DNA from: Lachnospiraceae bacterium
GTDB lineage: Bacteria; Bacillota; Clostridia; Lachnospirales; Lachnospiraceae
Direction: 5' to 3'
Length of the DNA: 64,000 bases
Assembly (NCBI GenBank): GCA_021199475.1
Contig: JAJQHZ010000085.1
Span: 34,089 to 98,088, forward strand
In this document: piece by piece, positions 4,183-23,732 of the stretch
Layout of the letters: every line of letters starts with the position of its first letter
Position numbering within the stretch: position 1 is the first letter of the stretch
Translations under genes and position numbers: made by a program
Notes under the pieces: model-generated
Databases searched by the model: none
Told to the model about the DNA's origin: nothing
Seen by the model: the letters and a program-made list of their open reading frames with translations, nothing else

Positions 4183-4437
4183 GTGGAAAGAAATCTTAGA
4201 AAAACCCGTACGGGCAAGGTTGTCAGCGATAGAATGGATAAGACGATCGTTGTAGCTGTAGAGGATCACGTAAAGCATCCGCTCTACAACAAAATCGTGA
4301 AGAAGACATACAAGCTGAAGGCGCATGATGAGAATAATGAGTGCAACATCGGCGATACCGTAAAGGTTATGGAGACAAGACCGCTGTCTAAGGACAAGAG
4401 ATGGAGGCTTGTGGAAATCGTTGAGAAGGTTAAATAA
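4183..4437 (+). CDS. rpsQ: 30S ribosomal protein S17
   Basis: 84-aa ORF, GTG start after AAAGGAG, S17-like [19 protein letters not shown]. Confidence 0.95.
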
Positions 4438-4455
4438 CAGAGGAGGTATATCGGC

Positions 4456-4824
4456 ATGATACAGCAGGAATCCAGACTCAGGGTTGCTGATAATACTGGT
4501 GCGAAAGAGATTCTCTGCATCCGTGTTATGGGCGGTTCCACCAGAAGATATGCGACTGTTGGCGATACCATTATTGCTACGGTCAAAGATGCAACGCCAG
4601 GCGGTGTTGTCAAAAAAGGCGATGTCGTTAAGGCAGTTGTCGTTCGGACGGTAAAGGGCATCCGCCGCAAGGACGGTTCCTATATCCGATTTGACGAGAA
4701 CGCGGCAGTCATCATCAAGGATGACCTTACCCCGCGCGGAACCCGTATTTTCGGACCGGTAGCGAGAGAGCTTCGTGACAAGAAATTCATGAAGATTGTC
4801 TCCCTGGCGCCGGAGGTATTATAA
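4456..4824 (+). CDS. rplN: 50S ribosomal protein L14
   Basis: 122-aa [21 protein letters not shown]. Confidence 0.97.
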
Positions 4825-12524: not shown

Positions 12525-12539
12525 CGAATGGAGGTAAAT

Positions 12540-12758
12540 ATGTCGAAGGCAGATGTCATTGAAGTAGAAGGAAAAGTGATTGAGAAGCTTCCGAACGCGA
12601 TGTTTCGCGTAGAACTGGAGAATAAGCATGTTGTGCTCGCGCACATCAGCGGAAAGCTTCGCATGAACTTTATCCGTATCCTTCCCGGTGATAAGGTTAC
12701 AATCGAATTGTCGCCGTATGATCTGACCAAGGGAAGAATCATCTGGAGAGATAAATAA
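12540..12758 (+). CDS. infA: translation initiation factor IF-1
   Basis: ORF 12528-12758; [41 protein letters not shown] is unmistakably IF-1. Confidence 0.97.
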
Positions 12759-12764
12759 TACGAA

Positions 12765-14261
12765 ATGGAAAATGGGTTACAGCCTGGATTGCTGCTTTTT
12801 TTCTCGGTATTCGTATGGATCATGTATGGCACTGTGTTTTTATCGGATCCAAAGAACCGGATTAATCAATGGTGTCTGATCTGCGGACTGATTCTGAGTC
12901 TTGGAGTATTTAAGGAATTCCTGGTAGGTGCGGGAATATGTGCTGGTATGAGAGTATATGTATTCGGAATCAGTCGTGATCTGGAGGATATGCTTAATTC
13001 AATTCTGACCGCAATTTTGTATTACCTGGCCATGCCCTGTGTGATGGTTTTTACATTCTATTTCTGCCGGTTGGATAAGGAAAAGTCGAAGCTGTTTTTG
13101 CTGCTTTGTGGAATCCTGTATGTTCCGGCAGTTACTTTTGCGTTTGCTTATTCGCCGCTCCAGACGCGGGAGATTGCGCAGGCACAGCCGGATGCGTTCC
13201 GGAATGTGGCGATCTATAACCTGATCTACGGAGCTGCCTCGGCTTTGCTAATCTGCATTTCTCTGGCCAAAGAACGGAATACTCCGCAGTTTGGTCAAAG
13301 GCGTATGGTGGTGTTTATCGTTCTGATTCCGGTTGATTACTGGCTGATCACGCTTTTCGGATTCCATCTGTTAAAGCTGGAGAAGCTGTATAAGATGTGG
13401 CAGGGAAATATTATCATACTTCCGGTATTATTTCTGTTCTATGTGCGGCAGATGTTTCAAGACGGAGCATGGGGGCTGCGGCTGCAAAAGGAACATTTTG
13501 ACTGGACGGAGGGGGAAAGCAGTCAGGCAAAAGCTTCCTCTTACCTGATGCATATGGTGAAAAACGAAACTGCGAAAATACGCTGGTGCGCGGATGCCAT
13601 CCGCGATCCGGAGCTGCGGGACAGTCATGCAGAAGCAGATATTATCAATCGTTCTGTAGATCAGATTGAGGCGTTGCTGCAGCGCAGCAGCAGATATGAG
13701 AAAGAAATTGTTCCGCAGTGCCGGGAAGTGATAGTTTATCAATTGTTTCAGGAAATCAGAGAGGAACGTCTGAAAAACTGGAATGGGCGGGTTATTATTA
13801 ACGTAGAAAACACACAGTCTTCTGTATTCTGCGATTATAGTCTGATGAAAGAGGTTTTGGTAAATTTGGTTGAAAATGCGATGGAGGCCATGGTTCCGGG
13901 CGAGGAAGGTATGCTCACGCTTCGATTTACAAAACCTGTTCGGCATCGACCATTACATAGAAGGAAGCAGCCGAGACGTTCGAATCAGAAAACAAACATG
14001 GTTCGCATTGAAGTCGAGGATAATGGAAAAGGAATTCCGGAGGAAATACAGCAGAAGGTATTTCAACCATATTATACAAATAAAAAGGATGACATGCATT
14101 TTGGCCTGGGACTTTCCTGGTGTCAGAAGGTTGTGCGCAGGCATGGTGGGACAATCGAGGTAAAATCCCCGGCAACAATGGATGGAAAGGGAACAGTATT
14201 TACACTTTACCTGCCTAATGAGCGCAGAAAGCAGAGGACACATCATGAGCACAATTCATGA
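12765..14261 (+). CDS. sensor histidine kinase, polytopic N-terminal sensor domain
   Basis: 498-aa ORF. About 240 aa of hydrophobic helices, candidate H-box YLMHMVKNE, N-box LVNLVENAMEAM, G-boxes DNGKGI and GLGLSW. A basic insert (HRPLHRRKQPRRSNQK) lies between N and G1 boxes. ATG is only 6 nt after the infA stop, with no obvious SD. Confidence 0.85.
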   Translation: MENGLQPGLLLFFSVFVWIMYGTVFLSDPKNRINQWCLICGLILSLGVFKEFLVGAGICAGMRVYVFGISRDLEDMLNSILTAILYYLAMPCVMVFTFYFCRLDKEKSKLFLLLCGILYVPAVTFAFAYSPLQTREIAQAQPDAFRNVAIYNLIYGAASALLICISLAKERNTPQFGQRRMVVFIVLIPVDYWLITLFGFHLLKLEKLYKMWQGNIIILPVLFLFYVRQMFQDGAWGLRLQKEHFDWTEGESSQAKASSYLMHMVKNETAKIRWCADAIRDPELRDSHAEADIINRSVDQIEALLQRSSRYEKEIVPQCREVIVYQLFQEIREERLKNWNGRVIINVENTQSSVFCDYSLMKEVLVNLVENAMEAMVPGEEGMLTLRFTKPVRHRPLHRRKQPRRSNQKTNMVRIEVEDNGKGIPEEIQQKVFQPYYTNKKDDMHFGLGLSWCQKVVRRHGGTIEVKSPATMDGKGTVFTLYLPNERRKQRTHHEHNS

Positions 14262-14844
14262 GCAGGAACAAATAAGACTGATGGTTGTAGATGATGATCC
14301 GGATTTTCTGTACCTGATTCAGAAAACACTCAAAAAATCCCCGGAATTCGAAGTGGTCGGATGCTGTGGCGATGAGGAATCCGCTGTCAGCATGGCCTGC
14401 CGGGATCAGCCGGATGTTGTTTTGATGGATTTGAATCTGGGAAATTCGTTCTCTGATGGCATACGAGCGTCAAGGGAAATCCGCATTATGACAGATGCTA
14501 AAGTGCTGATATTGACAGCAATCGATGCACCAGATGTGATTTTGAAGGCCTGCAAAGAGGCCTTTGCTTCCGGGTACATATTTAAAGGACAGCATGAGCT
14601 TCTCGCAGCGACCGTAAGGGAGCTTTCACAGGGGTATACCGCGCAGGAATATGTAATAGCACAATCCGCGATCTCCTGTCTTTCGGAGGCGGAAATGGCG
14701 GTGTTTTCTAATCTGATGGGAAAAGATGTGCAGCTGCAGTCTACACGGAAAACCATTCAGAATCAGACAACCAGTATCCTGAAAAAGCTGGGTCTTGAGA
14801 ATAAAACGGATCTGCTTCATGTATTCCGGATTTTTATGGAATAA
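14245..14844 (+). CDS. response regulator, LuxR/NarL-type HTH output
   Basis: ORF 14182-14844; ATG at 14245 overlaps the kinase 3' end. Receiver motifs VVDDDP, VVLMDLNL, GYIFKG; C-terminal GerE-like helix-turn-helix. Confidence 0.85.
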   Translation: MSTIHEQEQIRLMVVDDDPDFLYLIQKTLKKSPEFEVVGCCGDEESAVSMACRDQPDVVLMDLNLGNSFSDGIRASREIRIMTDAKVLILTAIDAPDVILKACKEAFASGYIFKGQHELLAATVRELSQGYTAQEYVIAQSAISCLSEAEMAVFSNLMGKDVQLQSTRKTIQNQTTSILKKLGLENKTDLLHVFRIFME

Positions 14845-14870
14845 ACGGGAACGACGAAGGGCATAAAGCT

Positions 14871-14905
14871 AAGAATCCCATAATATTTGGGATTCTTATT
14901 TTTTG
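14871..14905 (+). terminator. rho-independent terminator after response regulator
   Basis: AAGAATCCC / GGGATTCTT 9-bp stem followed by ATTTTTT. Confidence 0.8.
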
Positions 14906-14971
14906 AAAAGAAACGATGCTATAATTGGTTCAGATATATAAACAGAAGTTTTCCCGGAAGGAGAAATTGGT

Positions 14972-17428
14972 ATGAAAAAGAGAATATTACGTCCGTTTTT
15001 TTTGATGATTGCGCTGTTGTTATTTTCTGCATCGGCCTCAGCCGCTACTACACTGACGGTAGGAAGAACTACTACGCTGACCGCATCCCAGCCGGAAACC
15101 AGCTATAGCGCTTACGGTGGTGTAAGCTATACCTATGTGTGGTCCAGCTCTGATAGCAGCGTGGTCAGTATTTCTGGAAGCGGGCAATCCCGCACAATCA
15201 AAGGAGAATCAGCAGGAACCGCTACGGTATCCTGTATCGTTTCCATGAGTTATTACAGCTATGATTCCCGATTAGGGACATTACAGTCCCGGTACGAGAC
15301 AAAAAGCGGCGGCGGATGGACGATCACTGTCACGGCAGCTGGCGGGAACTCCAGCTCTAGTTCAGGGACCGCTTCCACATCCTCTGTTGCCGCATCAAAA
15401 CTCTCATGGTCCTCCAGCCGCGCTGAGATGGCTTTGAACGAGCAGATCAGGTTCACTGTCACGCAGTATCCATCCGGGGCAAATTCGTCCGTTTCATGGA
15501 TGAGCAGTGATGTATCCGTTGCTTCCGTCGATGCGAACGGGGTCGTCACGGCGAAGAAAAGAGGAACTACGACGATTACGGCAAGTACATCCAACAATAT
15601 TTCCGTCTCCTGTAAGGTCACCGTAAAGAAAAAAGCAAAGAAAATTGTGCTTAAAAGTACCTCAATATCTTTGAATAAGGGAAAAACAAAACAGCTCAAA
15701 TACTCATTGTCTCCTTCCGGCTCCACCGCATCACTGACGTTCAGCAGCAGCGATTCGAGCGTTGCGTCTGTTGATTCAACTGGAACAATTACCGCAAATA
15801 AAGCAGGAACAGCGACCATCACTGTTTCCTCGTCAGGTGGTCTGACAGCGAAATGTAAAGTAAAAGTAAAGGTGAAAGCAAAAAGCGTGAAGCTTGAGAC
15901 CTCCAGTCTTAAAATGGGTGTCGGCGGAACCAGAACGCTGACCGCGACTGTGAAACCGCTGGACACCACGCAAAAAATTTCCTGGAGCAGCAGCAATTCC
16001 AGCGTTGTATCCGTAAATAAAAACGGAAAGCTGGTTGCCAAAAAGACCGGAACGGCGACTATTACGGCTAAAATTTCAGGTGACGTAAGCGCAACGTGTA
16101 AAGTTACAGTTAAGAAAAAGGTTACTAAGATCAAGCTTACTAAATCAAAGCTGTCTATGAATAAGGGTGACACACAGAAGCTGAAATATAAGCTGTCACC
16201 GTCTGGTTCATATGGAGATGTCACGTGGACGAGCTCTAATTCATCTGTCGCGACAGTCAGTTCAGATGGTACGATATCAGCAACAGGGGCTGGAACAACA
16301 ACGATTAAAGCAAAAATATCAGGCAAAATATCTGCTAAATGTGTAGTCACGGTTTCCGTTCCTGCTACCGGAGTTTCTCTTGATAGTACGAGCCTGACGC
16401 TCAGCATTGGTGAAACCTGTTCCCTTGGCCATACAATTACACCTGGGGATACCACAGATACCGCTGTCTGGTCGACAGATACAGCCAGTGTTGTCACGGT
16501 GGATCAGAATGGAACGCTACATGCAACCGGGCTGGGCACCGCAAAGGTTACGGTGAAGGTGGGTTCATACTCTGCCAACTGTGAGATAAAAGTAGTGTCT
16601 GAGATTCCGGCTACAGGCCTTTCCTTTGGAGAGTCAGATCCGGCTGTTATAAAAGGACATTCTCTTACCATCCCTGTTGTGCTGGAGGGCGCTTCGAATA
16701 TGACGGATCAGGCAAGTGATGTGACCTGGTCGTCCAGCAATCCTGGCATCGCCACCGTAGACGCAAATGGAACGGTCTATGGCGTAAGCGAGGGCGTAAC
16801 GACAATCACCGCTTCCCTGCGGAACTATACCTCGACACGTACGATTGTAGTCGCAAAAGGTGCGTGGATTGATTTGTCTAAGGGAATCGCATGGATTGAA
16901 GGCAACAGAGCCAAAACCGGATCCGGATCTTATTTCGCATATTCGTCAGCCACTGGTCTGACACTGGTACAGAGTGATCCGAGTAAAACCTACAATGTCT
17001 ACTTTTCCACATCCTCAACAGACATAGACTCCCGTTATATTATTTTAGCTGGGGTCACTATACCGAACAAACTGGATACAGGCCTGGAAACTATTATCAT
17101 TGAGGCAATGGAAGGAACCGAAAATGTATTTAATAATTCTGTTTCTACATCTTACTCAAAATCAGCCATTACCTTTACGGGGAGCGGAACACTTACCATT
17201 AACAGCACCGGAAACGCGATCCAGGCAAAATCTGTTAATTTCGCAGGGGGTGATGTGACAGTCAAAACCAGCAGTAAATCAGCAACTGTTATAAATGCAA
17301 AGTCACTCACTGTGCAGCGGGGAGTTACCGTGAATGTCATTGGCGGGGCCAAAGCATATGAACCAGCTAGTTCATCAAATGGATATGTGCGAAATATCTA
17401 TGGAACTCTGAATTATAGTTCTAACTAA
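14972..17428 (+). CDS. secreted surface protein with about 7 bacterial Ig-like (Big_2-type) repeats
   Basis: 818-aa ORF. Signal peptide MKKRILRPFFLMIALLLFSASASA; repeated units of the form SS(S/D)xSVA(S/T)VDxxGxxTAxxxGTATIT. No LPXTG or other anchor recognised. Confidence 0.85.
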   Translation: MKKRILRPFFLMIALLLFSASASAATTLTVGRTTTLTASQPETSYSAYGGVSYTYVWSSSDSSVVSISGSGQSRTIKGESAGTATVSCIVSMSYYSYDSRLGTLQSRYETKSGGGWTITVTAAGGNSSSSSGTASTSSVAASKLSWSSSRAEMALNEQIRFTVTQYPSGANSSVSWMSSDVSVASVDANGVVTAKKRGTTTITASTSNNISVSCKVTVKKKAKKIVLKSTSISLNKGKTKQLKYSLSPSGSTASLTFSSSDSSVASVDSTGTITANKAGTATITVSSSGGLTAKCKVKVKVKAKSVKLETSSLKMGVGGTRTLTATVKPLDTTQKISWSSSNSSVVSVNKNGKLVAKKTGTATITAKISGDVSATCKVTVKKKVTKIKLTKSKLSMNKGDTQKLKYKLSPSGSYGDVTWTSSNSSVATVSSDGTISATGAGTTTIKAKISGKISAKCVVTVSVPATGVSLDSTSLTLSIGETCSLGHTITPGDTTDTAVWSTDTASVVTVDQNGTLHATGLGTAKVTVKVGSYSANCEIKVVSEIPATGLSFGESDPAVIKGHSLTIPVVLEGASNMTDQASDVTWSSSNPGIATVDANGTVYGVSEGVTTITASLRNYTSTRTIVVAKGAWIDLSKGIAWIEGNRAKTGSGSYFAYSSATGLTLVQSDPSKTYNVYFSTSSTDIDSRYIILAGVTIPNKLDTGLETIIIEAMEGTENVFNNSVSTSYSKSAITFTGSGTLTINSTGNAIQAKSVNFAGGDVTVKTSSKSATVINAKSLTVQRGVTVNVIGGAKAYEPASSSNGYVRNIYGTLNYSSN

Positions 17429-17697
17429 GGAATTGTTGCATAATAACATACCCGGATTTTGCCGGATAACGTATGAAACACAGACCATAAAAAACAGGCG
17501 CAGCGGGGCGTAGAGCGTCGAGGTTTTTATGATCTTCGATTCGCGCGTTAGGCGGTGCAAGATGGGCAGGTAATTTCGTGACAGCTCCTACGGATTATTA
17601 CAGTCTGTGATTCGCACGATAACTGTGTAAGAAGCATAAGGTATTTTGCTGAAGACTTTTGAATATAAGCACGGTAATAATGAAAGAAGCCGTTAAA

Positions 17698-17729
17698 AGA
17701 GGGTGCTATAGACAATAGCACCCTCTTTG
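17698..17729 (+). terminator. stem-loop, possible terminator downstream of surface-protein gene
   Basis: AGAGGGTGCT / AGCACCCTCT 10-bp perfect stem with only a short T tail. Confidence 0.45.
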
Positions 17730-17976
17730 CCGGTGTACAGAGAAATGACCAGGAGGTTTATGAGCAATTTAACACTTACGTTCATCCATTAAGGAACTGT
17801 CGAAAGGTGCTTGTAAAAATCGTGAATATACCGAAAATATATTTTAATAATCAATTAATAAAATAAATATTGACTAAGCGCATGATATAGGTTAGATTAT
17901 AGACAGGTATTTATGTGTGTGTTTACAATTTCCCCATATTTCTGCATCCCGGGGTGGTTTGTTGTGTAACCATCAA

Positions 17977-19248
17977 ATGAATGAAGAAAAAAGAAATGGA
18001 AAGCAGGCAGCATCTGCGGGTAATATTCTTTCACCCAAAGAGAAGACTGTTAACAGAGAAATTGATGGGAAAATCCCCGGTCAGGGGAAGCCAAAAGATT
18101 CTGCGACTTCTGTTATTTTTGAGAATAATGAGAATGTCGCAGATGTTTTCAACCATGCGGTGTTTGCGCCGGTTCCTGTCGAGGCAGCGGATATTTCCGA
18201 CGATAATATTAAGGAAGTTTCGCTTTTGCGGGTGAAGGAACAGAGCCATACGACGCTTACGAATTACCGCGATGTTATTAAGAAGCTTGGCTCTGAGCAG
18301 GTGCTGGCTATTTTAGGAATAGAGAATCAGGAGAGCGATTCTTTCCTGATGCCTTTCCGTGTGATGGAAGTTGATTTCATCAACTATGCGCGCCAGGTTC
18401 GAACGATTACAGACCGAAATGCTGCCTTATTGAACAAGAAAAAGGATTCTCTTCCGGGAGAGGATATTCCCGCATCCGGAAAGTCAGGCGGGGAATTCCT
18501 TGGAAGGTTTCTGGCAGAGGATCGAATCATTCCATGTATTACTCTCGTGATTTACTGGGGAATGGAACCATGGAAGGGACCCCGGCGCCTGTCCGAGATG
18601 TTTTTGGACAGTTCGTGGGCACCATATGCGTCGGATTATGAGATGCATTTACTCGAGGTTAATAAAATCAGCGATGCGGAACTCGAAACATATGGCAAGG
18701 AGCTTCGTGCTGTTTTTGGATTTGTAAAATATTCTCGCGATAAGGTTAAATTAAAGCAGTACCTCGAACAAAATGAGGATGCATTTTCTAACTTGCCGGG
18801 AGTAATCGTTGACGCGATTTCGGAATTGACGGATTCCAGAGAAATAAAAACACTGATGGCACGAAATGACACAGCACAATGTGGGAAGGGAGATGGAGTG
18901 AATATGTGTGAAGCACTTAGAGACTGGATGGAAGATTTGAAAAATGAGGCATTGAATGAAGGCATGACACAAGGGTTGACTGTGGGTATGGAGAAAGGAA
19001 TAGCGGAAGGCCGGGAGAAAGGAATAATCGAAGGCCGGGAGAAAGGAATGATTGAAGGCCGTGCAGAAGGCCGTGCAGAAGGCCGTGCAGAAGGAATTAT
19101 TGAGGGAAGGAAAGAAGAACGAGAGAATACGGAGCGGGAACGAAAAAATGCAGAGATGGAACGGCAGAGAGCAGACAGGGCTGAAGAACGTGCATTGCGT
19201 GCGGAGACAGAGCTTATGAAACTGAAAGCGCAGCTTGGATATACCTGA
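17977..19248 (+). CDS. Rpn family recombination-promoting nuclease / putative transposase (YhgA-like PD-(D/E)xK)
   Basis: ORF 17917-19248, ATG at 17977. Rpn-like motifs (NVADVFN, GIENQESD, FRVMEVD, CITLVIYWG) recognised from memory. C-terminal EGREKG/EGRAEG tandem repeats typical of gut Firmicutes Rpn proteins. Confidence 0.75.
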   Translation: MNEEKRNGKQAASAGNILSPKEKTVNREIDGKIPGQGKPKDSATSVIFENNENVADVFNHAVFAPVPVEAADISDDNIKEVSLLRVKEQSHTTLTNYRDVIKKLGSEQVLAILGIENQESDSFLMPFRVMEVDFINYARQVRTITDRNAALLNKKKDSLPGEDIPASGKSGGEFLGRFLAEDRIIPCITLVIYWGMEPWKGPRRLSEMFLDSSWAPYASDYEMHLLEVNKISDAELETYGKELRAVFGFVKYSRDKVKLKQYLEQNEDAFSNLPGVIVDAISELTDSREIKTLMARNDTAQCGKGDGVNMCEALRDWMEDLKNEALNEGMTQGLTVGMEKGIAEGREKGIIEGREKGMIEGRAEGRAEGRAEGIIEGRKEERENTERERKNAEMERQRADRAEERALRAETELMKLKAQLGYT

Positions 19249-19360
19249 ACGTGTGAATAATGCCTGAAAGCCGCACGAAAAGTGCATGAGATACATGAAA
19301 GCGTGCCCGAAAGGCTGGGCAAAGAAAAGGCAAGAACAGACGGCAAGAGCGGCAAGAAAA

Positions 19361-19398
19361 GCCAGGAAAAATCCGAAAAGCCAGGAAAAATCCGAAAA
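19361..19398 (+). repeat. perfect 19-nt direct repeat x2 (GCCAGGAAAAATCCGAAAA)
   Basis: Read directly from the sequence. Confidence 0.95.
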
Positions 19399-19448
19399 AC
19401 CGCTTGCTTTTCCAATATCTGTATGGTATACTGACAAATGCTTTTTGC

Positions 19449-19474
19449 AGAGGCACTATCTCTGTGCCTTTTTG
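19449..19474 (+). terminator. rho-independent terminator after Rpn gene
   Basis: AGGCAC / GTGCCT stem followed by TTTTT. Confidence 0.6.
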
Positions 19475-19557
19475 TGACTGAAAAAAAATACAGCGCATAG
19501 CGAAAAGCCGTCGCTTTTGAGAAAAAAGGCGGCACATGAGCGAAAGGAGGATTGAAC

Positions 19558-19671
19558 ATGAAAGTTCGGTCATCAGTGAAGCCCATCTGTGAGAAGTGCA
19601 AGGTAATCAAGAGAAAAGGCAGAATCATGATTATCTGCGAGAATCCGAAGCATAAGCAGAGACAGGGGTAA
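19558..19671 (+). CDS. rpmJ: 50S ribosomal protein L36 (zinc form)
   Basis: Not in ORF track (37 aa). ATG after AAAGGAGG gives [37 protein letters not shown], stop TAA at 19669-19671. Confidence 0.95.
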
Positions 19672-20280
19672 CACGAAACAACTGGCGGTACCGACAGGAA
19701 ACAGCTGCAAAATACAGCGAAGTGCTGTCGAAGAACAATAGAACGATGGAATAAAGAGGGATTCATGCGATAGGATGATCGAATGAAACCGAATGAAATC
19801 AAATTTCATTCGACAACAGATTCGGTGTGAATATAAACTCTTACTTATATATAGCAGGTACTGTTTGGCTGGATGGATCTGGCCGGAAGGATGGTGAACG
19901 ATTTCGTTTTACCGCTGCCACTGTTTTATAAGTCAGGATTGCGCAGATTTATTTCGTTGTGATATTGCTTTTAATACCGGCACAGGAACAGGCAGTGCCT
20001 GGTCTCCCCAATGTACACCGCCGGGGAGCAGCGCGCGTTCCGAAAGAGAACGGATGCGCAGGCAGATGCCGCGCAAGGCAAGTTTGTGCGAAGGCGCAGA
20101 TATCCCTTTGGCAGGAAAGGAATGGGAAGCTTCCGAACAATCGGATTCGGTTTTCGATTGCTTTTGTATGCCAGGGTGAGCGCAGGCAGAATCAGGGCCA
20201 TGGCTTAATGGGCCGGAAAGGTCGCCGTATGGCGGCTGGGCGTACTGGTTTACGCCCCAGTTAGAAACAACATCAGGAGA

Positions 20281-20317
20281 GCATCTGCAAATAAAATTGC
20301 ATCGCAATGGCAGATGC
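20281..20317 (+). repeat. 37-nt nested-hairpin module (A-type) in rpmJ-rpsM spacer
   Basis: GCATCTGC-AAATAAA-ATTGC-ATC-GCAAT-G-GCAGATGC; same segment lengths as the copy at 50281. Confidence 0.65.
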
Positions 20318-20468
20318 GCAGGTAATACATCCGAAATGTGATCAGGGATGACACCGGAAGAGTGTGTGAGGAGTTAGACGGAGCGCCAGCTTTGCTATGA
20401 ACACTCTTGAGAAAACGGCGGCAGACTGACAAAGAAGATGTATTACAGGAAATGGAGGAACAAAACAC

Positions 20469-20837
20469 ATGGCACGTATTTCTGGTATCGATTTACCAAG
20501 AGAAAAGCGCGTGGAGATCGGTTTGACCTACATCTACGGGATTGGCAGAACGAGTTCAAACAAGATTCTCGCCGCGGCGAATGTGAATCCTGACACACGC
20601 GTCAGAGACCTGACGGATGAGGAAGTCAGAAGAATTCAGGATGTCATCAGCGAGCATTATATCGTAGAAGGTGATCTCAGAAGAGAGACCGCGCTGAACA
20701 TCAAGAGACTTCAGGAGATTGGATGCTACAGAGGAATCCGTCACAGGAGAAGCCTTCCGGTTCGTGGACAGAACACGAAGAATAATGCGAGAACGCGCAA
20801 GGGTCCGAGGAGGACGGTAGCGAACAAGAAGAAGTAA
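20469..20837 (+). CDS. rpsM: 30S ribosomal protein S13
   Basis: 122-aa [29 protein letters not shown]. Confidence 0.97.
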
Positions 20838-20911
20838 TGCAGTGACAGATTACAGACTGCATTCGTGAAACAATCGTTAAATTCATTCGAAGAAAGCAGG
20901 TTAATTCAGAT

Positions 20912-21310
20912 ATGGCAGCTAAGAAAGTTACGAAAAAAGTGACAAAGAGACGTGTTAAGAAGAACGTCGAGCGCGGACAGGCACATATCAAGTCCTCCTT
21001 CAACAATACGATCGTTACGTTGACGGACGCGCAGGGGAACGCTTTATCATGGGCAAGTGCCGGCGGACTCGGATTCAGAGGTTCGAGAAAATCGACTCCG
21101 TACGCAGCACAGATGGCTGCGGAGACCGCGACCAAGGCAGCTCTGATTCATGGCTTGAAGACGGTAGATGTATTTGTAAAGGGACCGGGTTCGGGAAGAG
21201 AAGCAGCGATTCGCGCGCTTTCCGCAAATGGTCTTGAAGTTACCAGTATTCGCGACGTGACGCCGGTTCCGCACAACGGATGCCGTCCGCCGAAGCGCAG
21301 AAGAGTCTAA
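20912..21310 (+). CDS. rpsK: 30S ribosomal protein S11
   Basis: 132-aa ORF with [18 protein letters not shown]. Confidence 0.97.
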
Positions 21311-21328
21311 TCAGGGAGGTCTATCAAA

Positions 21329-21922
21329 ATGGCAGTTAACAGAGTTCCTGTTCTTAAAAGATGCAGATCGCTCGGCCTGGAGCCGACCGTTCTGGGGTAT
21401 GACAAGAAGTCCAGAAGAGAGCTGAAGAGATCCAACCGCAAGGTAAGTGAGTATGGACTGCAGCTCCGCGAGAAACAGAAAGCAAAATTTATCTACGGCG
21501 TGCTGGAGAAGCCGTTCCGCAATTATTATAAGAAGGCTGACAAGATGCAGGGCCAGACCGGTACGAACCTGATGGTTATGCTGGAGAGCCGCCTGGACAA
21601 TGTCCTTTTCCGCCTTGGGTTTGCCAGGACGAGAAAGGAAGCGCGTCAGATCGTTGACCACAAGCATGTCCTTGTGAATGGCAAGCAGGTGAACATCCCG
21701 TCCTACCTTGTGAAGGCCGGTGATACGATTGAGATCAAAGAGAAATGCAAGAGCTCCCAGAGATATAAGGACATTCTTGCATCGACCGGCGGCCGTCTGG
21801 TACCGGAGTGGCTGGAGGCAGATCCGGAGGCACTGAAGGGAACCGTCAAGGAGCTTCCGTCCAGAGAAGCGATCGATGTTCCGGTCAACGAGGTGCTTAT
21901 TGTCGAGCTCTATTCTAAGTAA
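21329..21922 (+). CDS. rpsD: 30S ribosomal protein S4
   Basis: 197-aa ORF, S4 domain RLDNVLFRLGFARTRKEARQ. Confidence 0.96.
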   Translation: MAVNRVPVLKRCRSLGLEPTVLGYDKKSRRELKRSNRKVSEYGLQLREKQKAKFIYGVLEKPFRNYYKKADKMQGQTGTNLMVMLESRLDNVLFRLGFARTRKEARQIVDHKHVLVNGKQVNIPSYLVKAGDTIEIKEKCKSSQRYKDILASTGGRLVPEWLEADPEALKGTVKELPSREAIDVPVNEVLIVELYSK

Positions 21923-21973
21923 TATGTGCGTGAAAACCCTCAGTCAATTAACCCAAAAAGGAGGGGCTATAGA

Positions 21974-22933
21974 GTGCTTGATTTTAACAAACCCAAAATT
22001 GAAATTGCAGAAATGTCAGAAGATAAACGATTTGGCCGTTTTGTGGTCGAGCCGCTGGAGCGTGGTTACGGGACAACCCTTGGCAATTCGCTGAGAAGGA
22101 TTATGCTTTCTTCTCTGCCGGGCGCGGCTGTGAGTCAGGTCAAGATCGAAGGCGTGCTGCATGAATTCAGCTCTATCCCTGGTGTCAAAGAGGATGTTAC
22201 AGAGATTATCATGAACATCAAATCGCTGGCGATCAAGAATACCAGCGAGACAGATGAGGCTAAGATCGCGTACATCGAATTTGAAGGGGAAGGTGTCGTG
22301 ACGGGCGCGGATATTCAGGTCGATCAGGACATCGAGATTATGAATCCGGATCAGGTCATTGCGACACTGAACGGTGGACCGGACTCCAGACTTTTCATGG
22401 AGCTGACCATCACAAAGGGCCGTGGGTATGTCAGCGCGGAGAAAGGCAAGAGCGAGGATATGCCGATCGGCGTGATCGCGGTGGATGCAATCTATACGCC
22501 GGTAGAGAGGGTAAACCTCACCATCGAGGATACACGTGTGGGTCAGGTTACCGATTACGATAAACTGACGCTGGATGTTTATACAAATGCGACGCTGGAG
22601 CCGGACGAGGCGGTGAGCCTTGCGGCAAAGGTGCTGAGCGCACACCTGGGGCTGTTTATTGATCTCTCCGAGAACGCAAAGTCGGTAGAGATCATGAACG
22701 AGAAGGAAGACAATGAGAAGGAGAAGGTTCTGGAGATGAACATTGATGAACTGGAGCTTTCTGTCCGCTCGTTCAACTGCCTGAAGCGTGCCGGCATCAA
22801 TACGGTAGAAGAGCTTTGCAACCGGACATCTGAGGATATGATGAAGGTTCGGAATCTGGGCCGCAAATCACTCGAGGAAGTGCTTGGAAAGCTGAAGGAG
22901 TTTGGCCTGTCGCTGAACCCAAGTGAAGAGTGA
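21974..22933 (+). CDS. rpoA: DNA-directed RNA polymerase subunit alpha
   Basis: ORF 21926-22933; GTG at 21974 ([12 protein letters not shown]) after AAAGGAGGGG; C-terminal [16 protein letters not shown]. Confidence 0.95.
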
Positions 22934-23195
22934 GAATCTATACTCTGAACCGGAACAGATAAAAATGTATAGAGCAGGTCACTGCGAAGACACGGAACAG
23001 TGATCGGTTACAGTAACAGTATATTCAGGAGGTGCGTGAAAAAACGCTCCTTCTCGCGCCGCCAGTAAGACCGAAGCGCGTGGCGGTGTGTATGCGCGGC
23101 TCCGGCTCTGTCAGGAGCGGAGAATCTGCGCCATCCATCTGGCGGGTGAATCGATACGCCCGCAAGCAGGTGAAGGACACAGGGAGGAATACCAT

Positions 23196-23732
23196 ATGTC
23201 AGGATATAGAAAACTCAGCAGAACATCTGACCAGAGAAAGGCTCTGCTTCGCAATCAGGTGACCGCTCTGATTTACAGAGGCAGAATCATCACCACTGAG
23301 GCGAAGGCAAAGGAAGTCCGCAGAATCGCGGAGCATCTGATTGCACTGGCAGTTCGCGAAAGAGATAATTACGAGACCGTTACGGTTACCGCAAAGGTAG
23401 CGCGCAAGGACAAGGACGGCAAGCGTGTAAAGGAAGTTCAGGACGGCAAGAAGGTTACCGTTTATGACGAGGTGGAGAAGCAGATCAAGAAGGATAAGCC
23501 GAGCCGCCTGCATGCGAGACGCCAGATGCTCAAGGTGCTCTATCCGGTAAAGGAAGTCCCGAAGGAGACTGCCGGCAGGAAGAAGAACACGAAGGACATC
23601 GATCTGACGGCAAAGCTGTTCGATGAGATCGCTCCGAAGTACGCGGACCGCAATGGTGGTTACACCAGAATTGTGAAGATCGGGCAGCGCAGAGGTGACG
23701 GTGCTCCGACCGTTGTGCTTGAGCTGGTATAA
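23196..23732 (+). CDS. rplQ: 50S ribosomal protein L17 (expanded, 178 aa)
   Basis: ORF 23088-23732; ATG at 23196 ([20 protein letters not shown]) after GGGAGGAA; C-terminal [18 protein letters not shown]. Confidence 0.95.

Follow-up and report, generated by a model that had tools for sequence, protein, structure and literature searches.

An S4-Clostridia leader appears to be the core of a large fold between rpmJ and rpsM in Lachnospiraceae

Leaders of ribosomal-protein mRNAs are usually 50–150 nt long. In E. coli, ribosomal protein S4 represses translation of rpsM at the leader of the alpha operon (Alpha_RBS, RF00140), which comprises ~110 nt including the start codon, and the downstream genes are controlled by coupling. 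Here we analyzed the spacer between rpmJ and rpsM of a Lachnospiraceae bacterium, which is located in a stretch of 64,000 nt (“the window”; assembly GCA_021199475.1, contig JAJQHZ010000085.1, positions 34,089 to 98,088 of the forward strand) to which all coordinates refer. Like Alpha_RBS, it lies immediately upstream of rpsM and is probably pseudoknotted, S4 control being a prediction here. In contrast, the two have no similarity in sequence or structure. The RF00140 covariance model has no match in the window at E <= 10, and in one relative (L084) it reaches 19.5 bits over the rpsM start, compared with a gathering score of 38.

The closest described element is the S4-Clostridia ribosomal-protein leader (RF03140), published as a motif of 55 nt with two hairpins that runs from GAAAGG to UUAGG (Eckert & Weinberg 2020, PMC7247131). 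It is predicted to bind S4, based on gene context, and to regulate rpsM-rpsK-rpsD-rpoA-rplQ. The spacer shares with it the two hairpins, the GAAAGG 5′ end, the CUGG junction, the CCCARUUAG tail, the operon and the predicted ligand. However, the motif here seems to be the core of a fold of 340–900 nt. Beyond the published motif, many Lachnospiraceae have a closing helix that uses the “tail” (P0), a third arm (Pc) and a long upstream helix (P2). The clade of the window alone has, in addition, a junction domain of 85–243 nt within the Pc arm and a probable long-range pseudoknot.

The leader of Bacillus rpsD (Grundy & Henkin 1991/1992, cited in PMC7247131) is likewise an autoregulatory S4-binding mRNA structure of Firmicutes, but the rpsD gene that it controls is monocistronic and the fold is unrelated. 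A conserved GUAA in this leader is considered a mimic of 16S rRNA, and comparisons have been drawn between it and the GAAA of S4-Clostridia (PMC7247131). The large RNAs OLE, ROOL, GOLLD, HEARO and raiA are similar in having hundreds of nucleotides, many helices, conserved junctions and variable insertions. In contrast to the element described here, which has a known cis-regulatory core and is confined to the single rpmJ–rpsM locus, they are not ribosomal-protein leaders. The Rfam 15 models were used for scans of the whole 64-kb window and for a permissive scan of the spacer alone. No match was found to any of these five RNAs, to group I/II introns, RNase P, 6S RNA or tmRNA, and no credible family beyond RF03140 was detected.

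The S4-Clostridia core and the fold around it

The RF03140 element is identified with 47.1 bits (gathering score 37.5, E = 4e-10) and covers model positions 1–55 of 55. The organism belongs to the Lachnospiraceae, and the operon rpsM-rpsK-rpsD-rpoA-rplQ is directly downstream according to Pfam.

19672–20468: rpmJ–rpsM spacer, 797 nt
20216–20265, + strand: S4-Clostridia ribosomal-protein leader RF03140, 50 nt, consisting of GAAAGG, Rfam hairpin P1, CUGG, Rfam hairpin P2 and CCCAGUUAGA
20452–20460, + strand: Shine-Dalgarno (SD) region of rpsM, AUGGAGGAA, invariant across the clade
20469–23732, + strand: putative regulated operon rpsM-rpsK-rpsD-rpoA-rplQ, the gene set listed for S4-Clostridia in PMC7247131

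The alignment of the spacers from 19 congeners (337–567 nt) reveals invariant blocks that are separated by variable hairpins. A 25-nt pattern from one of them, block B, was scanned over 185,579 genomes, one per prokaryote species (GTDB genome set). It was found in 49 species, all of them Lachnospiraceae, including Choladousia, Choladocola, Parablautia and Merdiplasma. In 48 of the 48 species that have both genes on the contig, block B lies between rpmJ and rpsM, in spacers of 313–895 nt. One congener (L021, genome G002) is the only one with a spacer of 26 nt; it also has the lowest rpsM identity (80%), and its bin is 7% contaminated, so that this contig may be derived from another organism.

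The architecture was derived from RNAalifold on trimmed alignments together with inspection anchored on the invariant blocks. From 5′ to 3′, the order is GGCGG, P1, P2 5′ strand, a variable region, P2 3′ strand, P0 5′ strand, Pc 5′ strand, the junction domain, Pc 3′ strand, the Rfam element, P0 3′ strand and SD. From here on, P1 and P2 denote helices of this wider fold.

19693–19729, + strand: P1, a variable hairpin (GACAG...CUGUC); all relatives have a hairpin here with unrelated sequence, and it is present in the minimum free energy (MFE) fold
19736–19754, + strand: P2 5′ strand, block A, CAAUAGAACGAUGGAAUAA, pairing with 19949–19967 and nearly invariant in 49 species
19949–19967, + strand: P2 3′ strand, 5′ part of block B, invariant in 45 of 49 species; the window has a C to U change at one position
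19969–19975, + strand: P0 5′ strand, UUUUAAU, pairing with 20260–20266
19978–19983, + strand: Pc 5′ strand, CGGCAC, pairing with 20210–20215
20210–20215, + strand: Pc 3′ strand, GGGCCG, from anchor-based and alignment counts
20260–20266, + strand: P0 3′ strand, GUUAGAA (AUUAGAA in the clade), tail of the S4 element, from alignment pairing

Covariation was counted in a sequence-only MAFFT alignment of 28 species, comprising 39 pairs and 1073 cells. Pairing is possible in 97.8% of the cells, compared with 87.4% after shuffling of the partners, and none of 500 shuffles reached the observed value. Only 32–45% of the cells pair when the partner is slid by 1–3 columns. Changes on both sides (double or compensatory changes) were found for 23 of the 39 tested pairs, and anchor-based counts over all 49 species agree with these values. 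For the two RF03140 hairpins, all cells are paired, with double changes in three and four pairs, respectively; across 18 other genera, double changes occur in 10 of 13 pairs.

Pc has double changes in five of its six pairs. In the anchor-based counts over 49 species, 88% of its cells are canonical, compared with 69% after permutation of the partners. In other genera, Pc is a simple hairpin that encloses 11–65 nt, and the respective values are 94% and 60%. These were also counted by anchors, RNAalifold/MAFFT on the 18 other genera having recovered only the two Rfam hairpins and misaligned the Pc hairpins. For P0, every cell is paired in the 28 species, with one-sided changes only (U-A/U-G). Compensating variants exist elsewhere, i.e. 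CUUAAU/AUUAGG, CUUAUAAU/AUUAGGG, CUUCUAAU/AUUAAAG and, in genus g20, UUUGAU/AUCAAA. RNAalifold once paired a CUUUUA with the SD region; this sequestration was rejected because it consists mostly of G-U pairs and the between-genus support favors P0.

P2 pairs at 17 of 19 positions in the clade consensus (three G-U pairs included) and at 16 of 19 in the window, and its duplex carries a 2x2 internal loop. Within the clade, 33 of 49 species are identical, and changes are one-sided with pairing kept, e.g. G-U to A-U. Homologous P2 helices of other genera are built from different complementary strands (AAUAUUAUAAAG/CUUUAUAAUAUU, AAUAUACAAGGA/UCCUCGUAUAUU and AAUAUAAUGCAA/UUGCAUUGUAUU). The strands thus differ among genera and yet stay complementary, i.e. 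P2 covaries between genera.

Taken from these comparisons, the Rfam hairpins appear to be two arms of a four-way junction that is closed by P0 and has Pc as another arm, neither of which is part of the Rfam model. The published 55-nt motif would then be incomplete: in Lachnospiraceae, which are abundant gut bacteria, it would form only the center of a four-way junction, upstream of which lies a long helix, and RF03140 could be extended in both model and annotation.

In several other Lachnospiraceae genera (L099, L106, L116, L118 and L119, also L109), the Pc arm carries a different conserved expansion, with CCGGCUCGUCAUUACCG, a hairpin and then GGUGGCCGG. This suggests that the Pc arm has been elaborated more than once in Lachnospiraceae.

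Junction domain, probable pseudoknot and insertions

In the clade of the window, the Pc arm contains a domain with three covarying helices, and the loop of one of them is complementary to a strand close to the rpmJ stop codon.

19684–19689, + strand: GGCGGU, 5′ strand of the probable pseudoknot, located 12 nt past the rpmJ stop and able to pair with the P4 loop (20017–20022)
19984–20209, + strand: clade-specific junction domain in the Pc loop, with covarying P3, P4 and P5
19984–19987, + strand: AGGA of the junction domain
19991–19994 with 20067–20070, + strand: P3, double changes in 3 of 4 pairs
20004–20028, + strand: hairpin P4, double changes in 5 of 6 pairs
20017–20022, + strand: P4 loop ACCGCC, 3′ strand of the probable pseudoknot
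20031–20059, + strand: extra hairpin of the junction domain
20073–20077, + strand: GCAAG of the junction domain
20077–20199, + strand: P5 with a long insertion, double changes in 3 of 4 pairs
20200–20210, + strand: junction strand AUGGCUUAAUG, the last G of which also begins the Pc 3′ strand

The clade consensus of the domain is AGGA, P3, P4 with the loop ACCGCYG, YGCAAG, a variable P5 and CAYRGCUUAAUG, with a length of 85–243 nt in the 49 species. A covariance model of it (R1) matches in three of 400 Lachnospiraceae genera (one genome per genus), and in the genome of the window it has no match outside the rpmJ–rpsM locus. No Rfam match was obtained for the domain, even with the shortest relative.

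GGCGG and the P4 loop probably form a pseudoknot. In 50 species, 83% of the cells pair, compared with 21–58% when the partner is slid, and the flanks covary (UAGCGG/CCGCUA, CAGCGG/CCGCUG and UGGCGG/CCGCCG), an A opposite a C never being found. The 5′ strand lies 7–14 nt past the rpmJ stop in 43 of the 50 species.

The length of 797 nt is due to ~450 nt of fast-evolving hairpin insertions at three sites, i.e. the P2 interior, the P5 loop and the gap between the S4 element and SD.

19755–19948, + strand: variable region inside P2, including a 10-bp hairpin (19790–19812) and the semi-conserved CUCUUACUUAUAUAUAG (19838–19854)
20281–20317 and 20321–20449, + strand: two sub-clade hairpins between the S4 element and SD, with shorter forms in the nearest relatives L003–L007

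The region inside P2 has 195 nt in the window and 15–204 nt in relatives, and its insertions are hairpins whose sequence differs even from that of the closest relative, L072. The latter has a spacer of 895 nt with insertions at the same sites and diverged sequences. The Pc loop of the window has 225 nt (85–243 nt in relatives), enlarged by the hairpin at 20031–20059 and the long P5 insertion. The two hairpins in front of SD are absent in most relatives, in which SD follows ~10–15 nt after the S4 tail; because the inserted hairpins are closed stems, the S4 element and SD remain close together. As closed stems at length-variable positions, the insertions appear to behave like expansion segments. 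A mobile palindromic repeat (REP- or MITE-like) was rejected because the 3.8-Mb assembly contains no second copy: the spacer matches only itself, and blocks A and B occur once each.

A known leader family thus seems to be embedded in a large scaffold that goes beyond both the Rfam model and its source paper and is partly family-wide, partly clade-specific. In one small clade, a conserved and covarying domain of several helices would have been grafted onto the junction, together with a probable long-range pseudoknot, resulting in leaders of 340–900 nt.

The first-pass annotation, made from the sequence alone, had suggested that the spacer is a large structured RNA or a long alpha-operon leader. 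The former idea is borne out by the conservation of the rest of the spacer and its covarying long-range helices; as a check, comparison with relatives had been proposed, and the spacer is present and alignable in 48 related species, with covariation and no detectable degraded gene. As a qualification, ~450 of the 797 nt are lineage-specific hairpin insertions and do not belong to the conserved core. The Rfam scan that it had proposed retrieved the S4-Clostridia leader above the gathering threshold, in line with its mention of possible S4 control, and the leader interpretation is right in this respect; however, the spacer is not a 5′ leader with its own promoter, the conserved promoter being upstream of rpmJ. 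Its by-eye failure to recognize OLE, ROOL, GOLLD, a group I/II intron, RNase P, 6S or tmRNA agrees with Rfam.

Proposed regulation and competing explanations

With a probability of about 0.72, we regard the spacer as the intercistronic part of an rpmJ–rpsM transcript that forms a single large fold around an S4-Clostridia core and mediates feedback of S4 on the alpha operon. Such feedback is the most likely function, S4 binding and repression being deduced from the family assignment and the gene context. One transcript would run from the conserved promoter upstream of rpmJ through rpsM-rpsK-rpsD-rpoA-rplQ. S4, encoded by rpsD two genes downstream, would bind to the S4-Clostridia element when it exceeds free 16S rRNA. 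Bound S4 would block translation initiation at the nearby ribosome-binding site of rpsM, and the downstream genes would follow through translational coupling. P2 may stack upstream of the four-way junction, and P0, Pc, P2 and the pseudoknot may pre-organize or extend the S4 binding site. In the clade of the window, the Pc arm would have grown into a conserved three-helix junction domain. The pseudoknot would tie the whole spacer into one fold, its strand being within reach of ribosomes that terminate on rpmJ. The added domains would serve as a scaffold or as an additional contact surface.

Several points weigh against this interpretation. S4 as the ligand of S4-Clostridia is itself a published prediction (PMC7247131). 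P2 is almost invariant in the clade, and its pairing rests on the between-genus comparison, one-sided changes and energy; in addition, both P2 strands are more strictly conserved than the neighboring coding sequence, which goes beyond what this interpretation accounts for. The R1 model gives the domain of the window 18.6 bits, a partial match, because of the long insertions, and its membership therefore rests on the anchored blocks and the helices. The pseudoknot is supported by five invariant pairs and by independent compensatory events that number only two or three, which is why we have called it probable. Lastly, transcription is known from assembled contigs of a relative, which can neither show ends nor exclude traces of DNA.

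A more elaborate version of the S4 interpretation, which we consider rather unlikely, is a composite riboregulator in which the junction domain and P2 bind a second partner (another ribosomal protein, an assembly factor or a metabolite) and ribosomes terminating on rpmJ open the fold via the pseudoknot strand. If true, the leader would read the level of S4, a second signal and upstream translation together, and few of the known cis-acting regulators of ribosomal proteins would equal it in size (340–900 nt) and complexity. It is somewhat less probable that a second ligand is sensed separately by the junction domain, alone or together with P2, so that the alpha operon integrates two signals; candidates would be S13, S11, L17, L36, the RNA polymerase alpha subunit, an assembly factor or a small molecule. 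The strictly conserved unpaired AGGA, YGCAAG, CAYRGCUUAAUG and ACCGCYG loop around covarying stems are typical of ligand pockets or protein sites, the P2 strands are invariant beyond the needs of pairing, and most genera carrying RF03140 manage with a simple Pc hairpin. However, the domain matches no Rfam family, is never found without the S4 element or at a second locus of the genome, and sits in an arm of the S4 junction, where it may simply extend the S4 contact surface. We assign a still lower likelihood to P2, with 17–19 bp, being the site of an endonuclease (e.g. RNase III) that splits rpmJ from the alpha-operon mRNA, with terminating ribosomes remodeling the leader; this would be compatible with S4 control. 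It would fit the long, sequence-invariant duplex with its 2x2 internal loop, the pseudoknot strand close behind the rpmJ stop, and the dip in contig depth and the adapter junction described below. But contig depth is a poor measure, as conserved coding parts may gather reads of other species, the junction was seen once in eight runs, and P2 is shorter than classic RNase III substrates.

Two other explanations are very unlikely. That everything outside the 50-nt S4 element is non-functional filler, i.e. REP- or MITE-like hairpin insertions in a tolerant gap, is highly improbable: it fits the ~450 nt of lineage-specific hairpins, which differ even from the closest relative, but the core blocks are invariant over 49 species, four new helices covary and no part of the spacer is duplicated in the genome. 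It can thus be applied to the insertions only, and for the scaffold it is refuted by covariation. The least credible explanation is an alpha-operon promoter inside the spacer, or a gene that has decayed there. A clear promoter does exist in this spacer in other families of the order, the window has one promoter-like match (19810–19839, TCGACA-18-TAAACT), and stop-free stretches reach 146 codons. However, that match lies in a window-specific insertion and, as a single match, is not above the mean of 1.6 in shuffles, no -35/-10 pair within the spacer is conserved in the clade, and the translations discussed below argue against a degraded gene or small open reading frame (ORF). The “TTGACT” of some relatives was also rejected as a promoter; it is part of a hairpin stem and has variable spacing.

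By eye, UAAUAC, AGGA, GCAAG, GCUUAAUG, GAAAGG and CUGGG resemble 16S rRNA near positions 528–572. This mimicry is not claimed: in a chain test with the 16S rRNA of a congener, this site scored about the null mean, and the best chain (29 of 38 matches, reached by 6 of 300 shuffles) was located away from the guessed site, the result not being significant. The 16S rRNA of L091 (G018 contig C10) has an Oscillospirales-like 530–570 region, GCGTTGTCCGGAATTACTGGGTGTAAAGGGAG, unlike the Lachnospiraceae form present in the other two congeners; the L091 contig may be mis-binned.

Locus, transcription and distribution

19404–19432, + strand: candidate sigma-70 promoter for the transcript of rpmJ and the alpha operon, TTGCTT-17 nt-TATACT, the -10 box being preceded by TG; predicted start site ~7 nt past the -10 box
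19558–19671, + strand: rpmJ, ribosomal protein L36 (Pfam Ribosomal_L36, 75.5 bits)
20469–20837, + strand: rpsM (Pfam Ribosomal_S13)
20912–21310, + strand: rpsK (Pfam S11)
21329–21922, + strand: rpsD, encoding S4 (Pfam S4)
21926–22933, + strand: rpoA (Pfam RpoA)
23088–23732, + strand: rplQ (Pfam L17)

The extent of the spacer given by the first-pass annotation is exact. Its description as non-coding is supported by Pfam searches with 13 translated stretches (including all nine stop-free ones of at least 50 aa), which yielded no credible match; the only match was CFAP77 with 15.3 bits (cut-off 24). The translations resemble relatives only in patches, in many frames and on both strands, which indicates conservation of nucleotides and not of a coding sequence. 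AUG-GAA-UAA within block A was rejected as a small ORF because it has no SD sequence. The spacer is not GC-rich, as had been stated: its GC content is 48.6%, compared with 50.6% for the genome, and only 19900–20330 reaches 52%. The reported density of hairpins is real, the MFE being -267 kcal/mol versus -227 +/- 4.8 kcal/mol for 20 dinucleotide shuffles (z = -8.4), and P2, P4 and the two S4 hairpins are all found in the MFE fold computed from the window sequence alone. Among the individual hairpins that had been listed, the perfect 10-bp hairpin at 19790–19812, CTCCCC/GGGGAG (at 20004–20028), GGGCGTA/TACGCCC (at 20238–20257) and the nested module at 20281–20317 are all present. GGCAC/GTGCC at 19979–19999 exists in the sequence but is not a conserved pairing, the bases belonging to the long-range helices Pc and P3 in relatives. 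The spacing of tens of nucleotides that had been taken as the norm does not apply to Lachnospiraceae, as is detailed below.

A histidine kinase, a response regulator, an 818-aa Big_2 repeat protein and an Rpn/YhgA-like protein are encoded at 12759–19557, between infA (12528–12758) and rpmJ. These four genes cut rpmJ off from the spc operon, so that it would depend on the promoter at 19404–19432. In 45 of 48 relatives, a corresponding box (TTGCAT/TTGCAA-N17-TATAAT/TATACT) precedes rpmJ by 99–162 nt.

No public RNA runs containing the organism of the window itself were found; DNA or untyped runs had contigs with only 6–15% of its words. For the relative L070, contigs were available from eight public runs, seven of which are metatranscriptomes. 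They lead from rpmJ into the spacer (4309–4557), along the spacer (4445–4693) and from the S4 element into rpsM (4667–4783). Metatranscriptome depth is zero upstream of the promoter and begins ~40–70 nt before rpmJ. Several metatranscriptomes show a dip in contig depth in mid-spacer, relative to rpmJ on one side and to the S4 element and rpsM on the other. One contig (run X7) has an Illumina small-RNA 5′ adapter fused to it at L070:4485, which falls within the 5′ strand of P2, at its internal loop; this was seen once in the eight runs. The dip and the junction are not strong enough to claim processing.

The 5′ leader of rpmJ (19433–19557) has a conserved hairpin followed by a U-run (CUUUUUGCAGAGGCAC...GUGCCUUUUUGUG, 19441–19475). 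Similar hairpins occur in L046, L061, L070, L072, L077 and L084, and they have no Rfam match. The hairpin resembles a terminator or attenuator and may provide this transcript with a second regulatory element.

RF03140 was found in 72 of 301 sampled Lachnospiraceae genera, whereas a sample of 151 genomes from across the order yielded only three with it. In 29 Lachnospiraceae genera with the element, the spacer has 167–437 nt, compared with 313–895 nt in the clade of the window, and P2, P0 and a simple Pc hairpin recur. The leaders would thus form a natural series from a simple hairpin via an intermediate expansion to the full junction domain plus tolerated insertions. This series bears on the growth of RNA-protein feedback switches, on the scaffold sites that tolerate expansion and on the coupling to upstream termination.

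A GCGGCUG motif with a hairpin recurs in rpsM leaders across the order (L022–L036, L092–L119). In other families, the spacer has a clear TTGACA-17-TATAAT promoter and the motif is just behind it; in Lachnospiraceae, it is upstream of P2, which results in two CGGCUG-plus-hairpin units per leader, one of them inside RF03140. In the clade of the window, the upstream unit reads GGCGG(A/U)A. One genome of another family (L025, G035) has an rpmJ–rpsM gap of 1494 nt, which may contain an inserted gene or a still larger leader.

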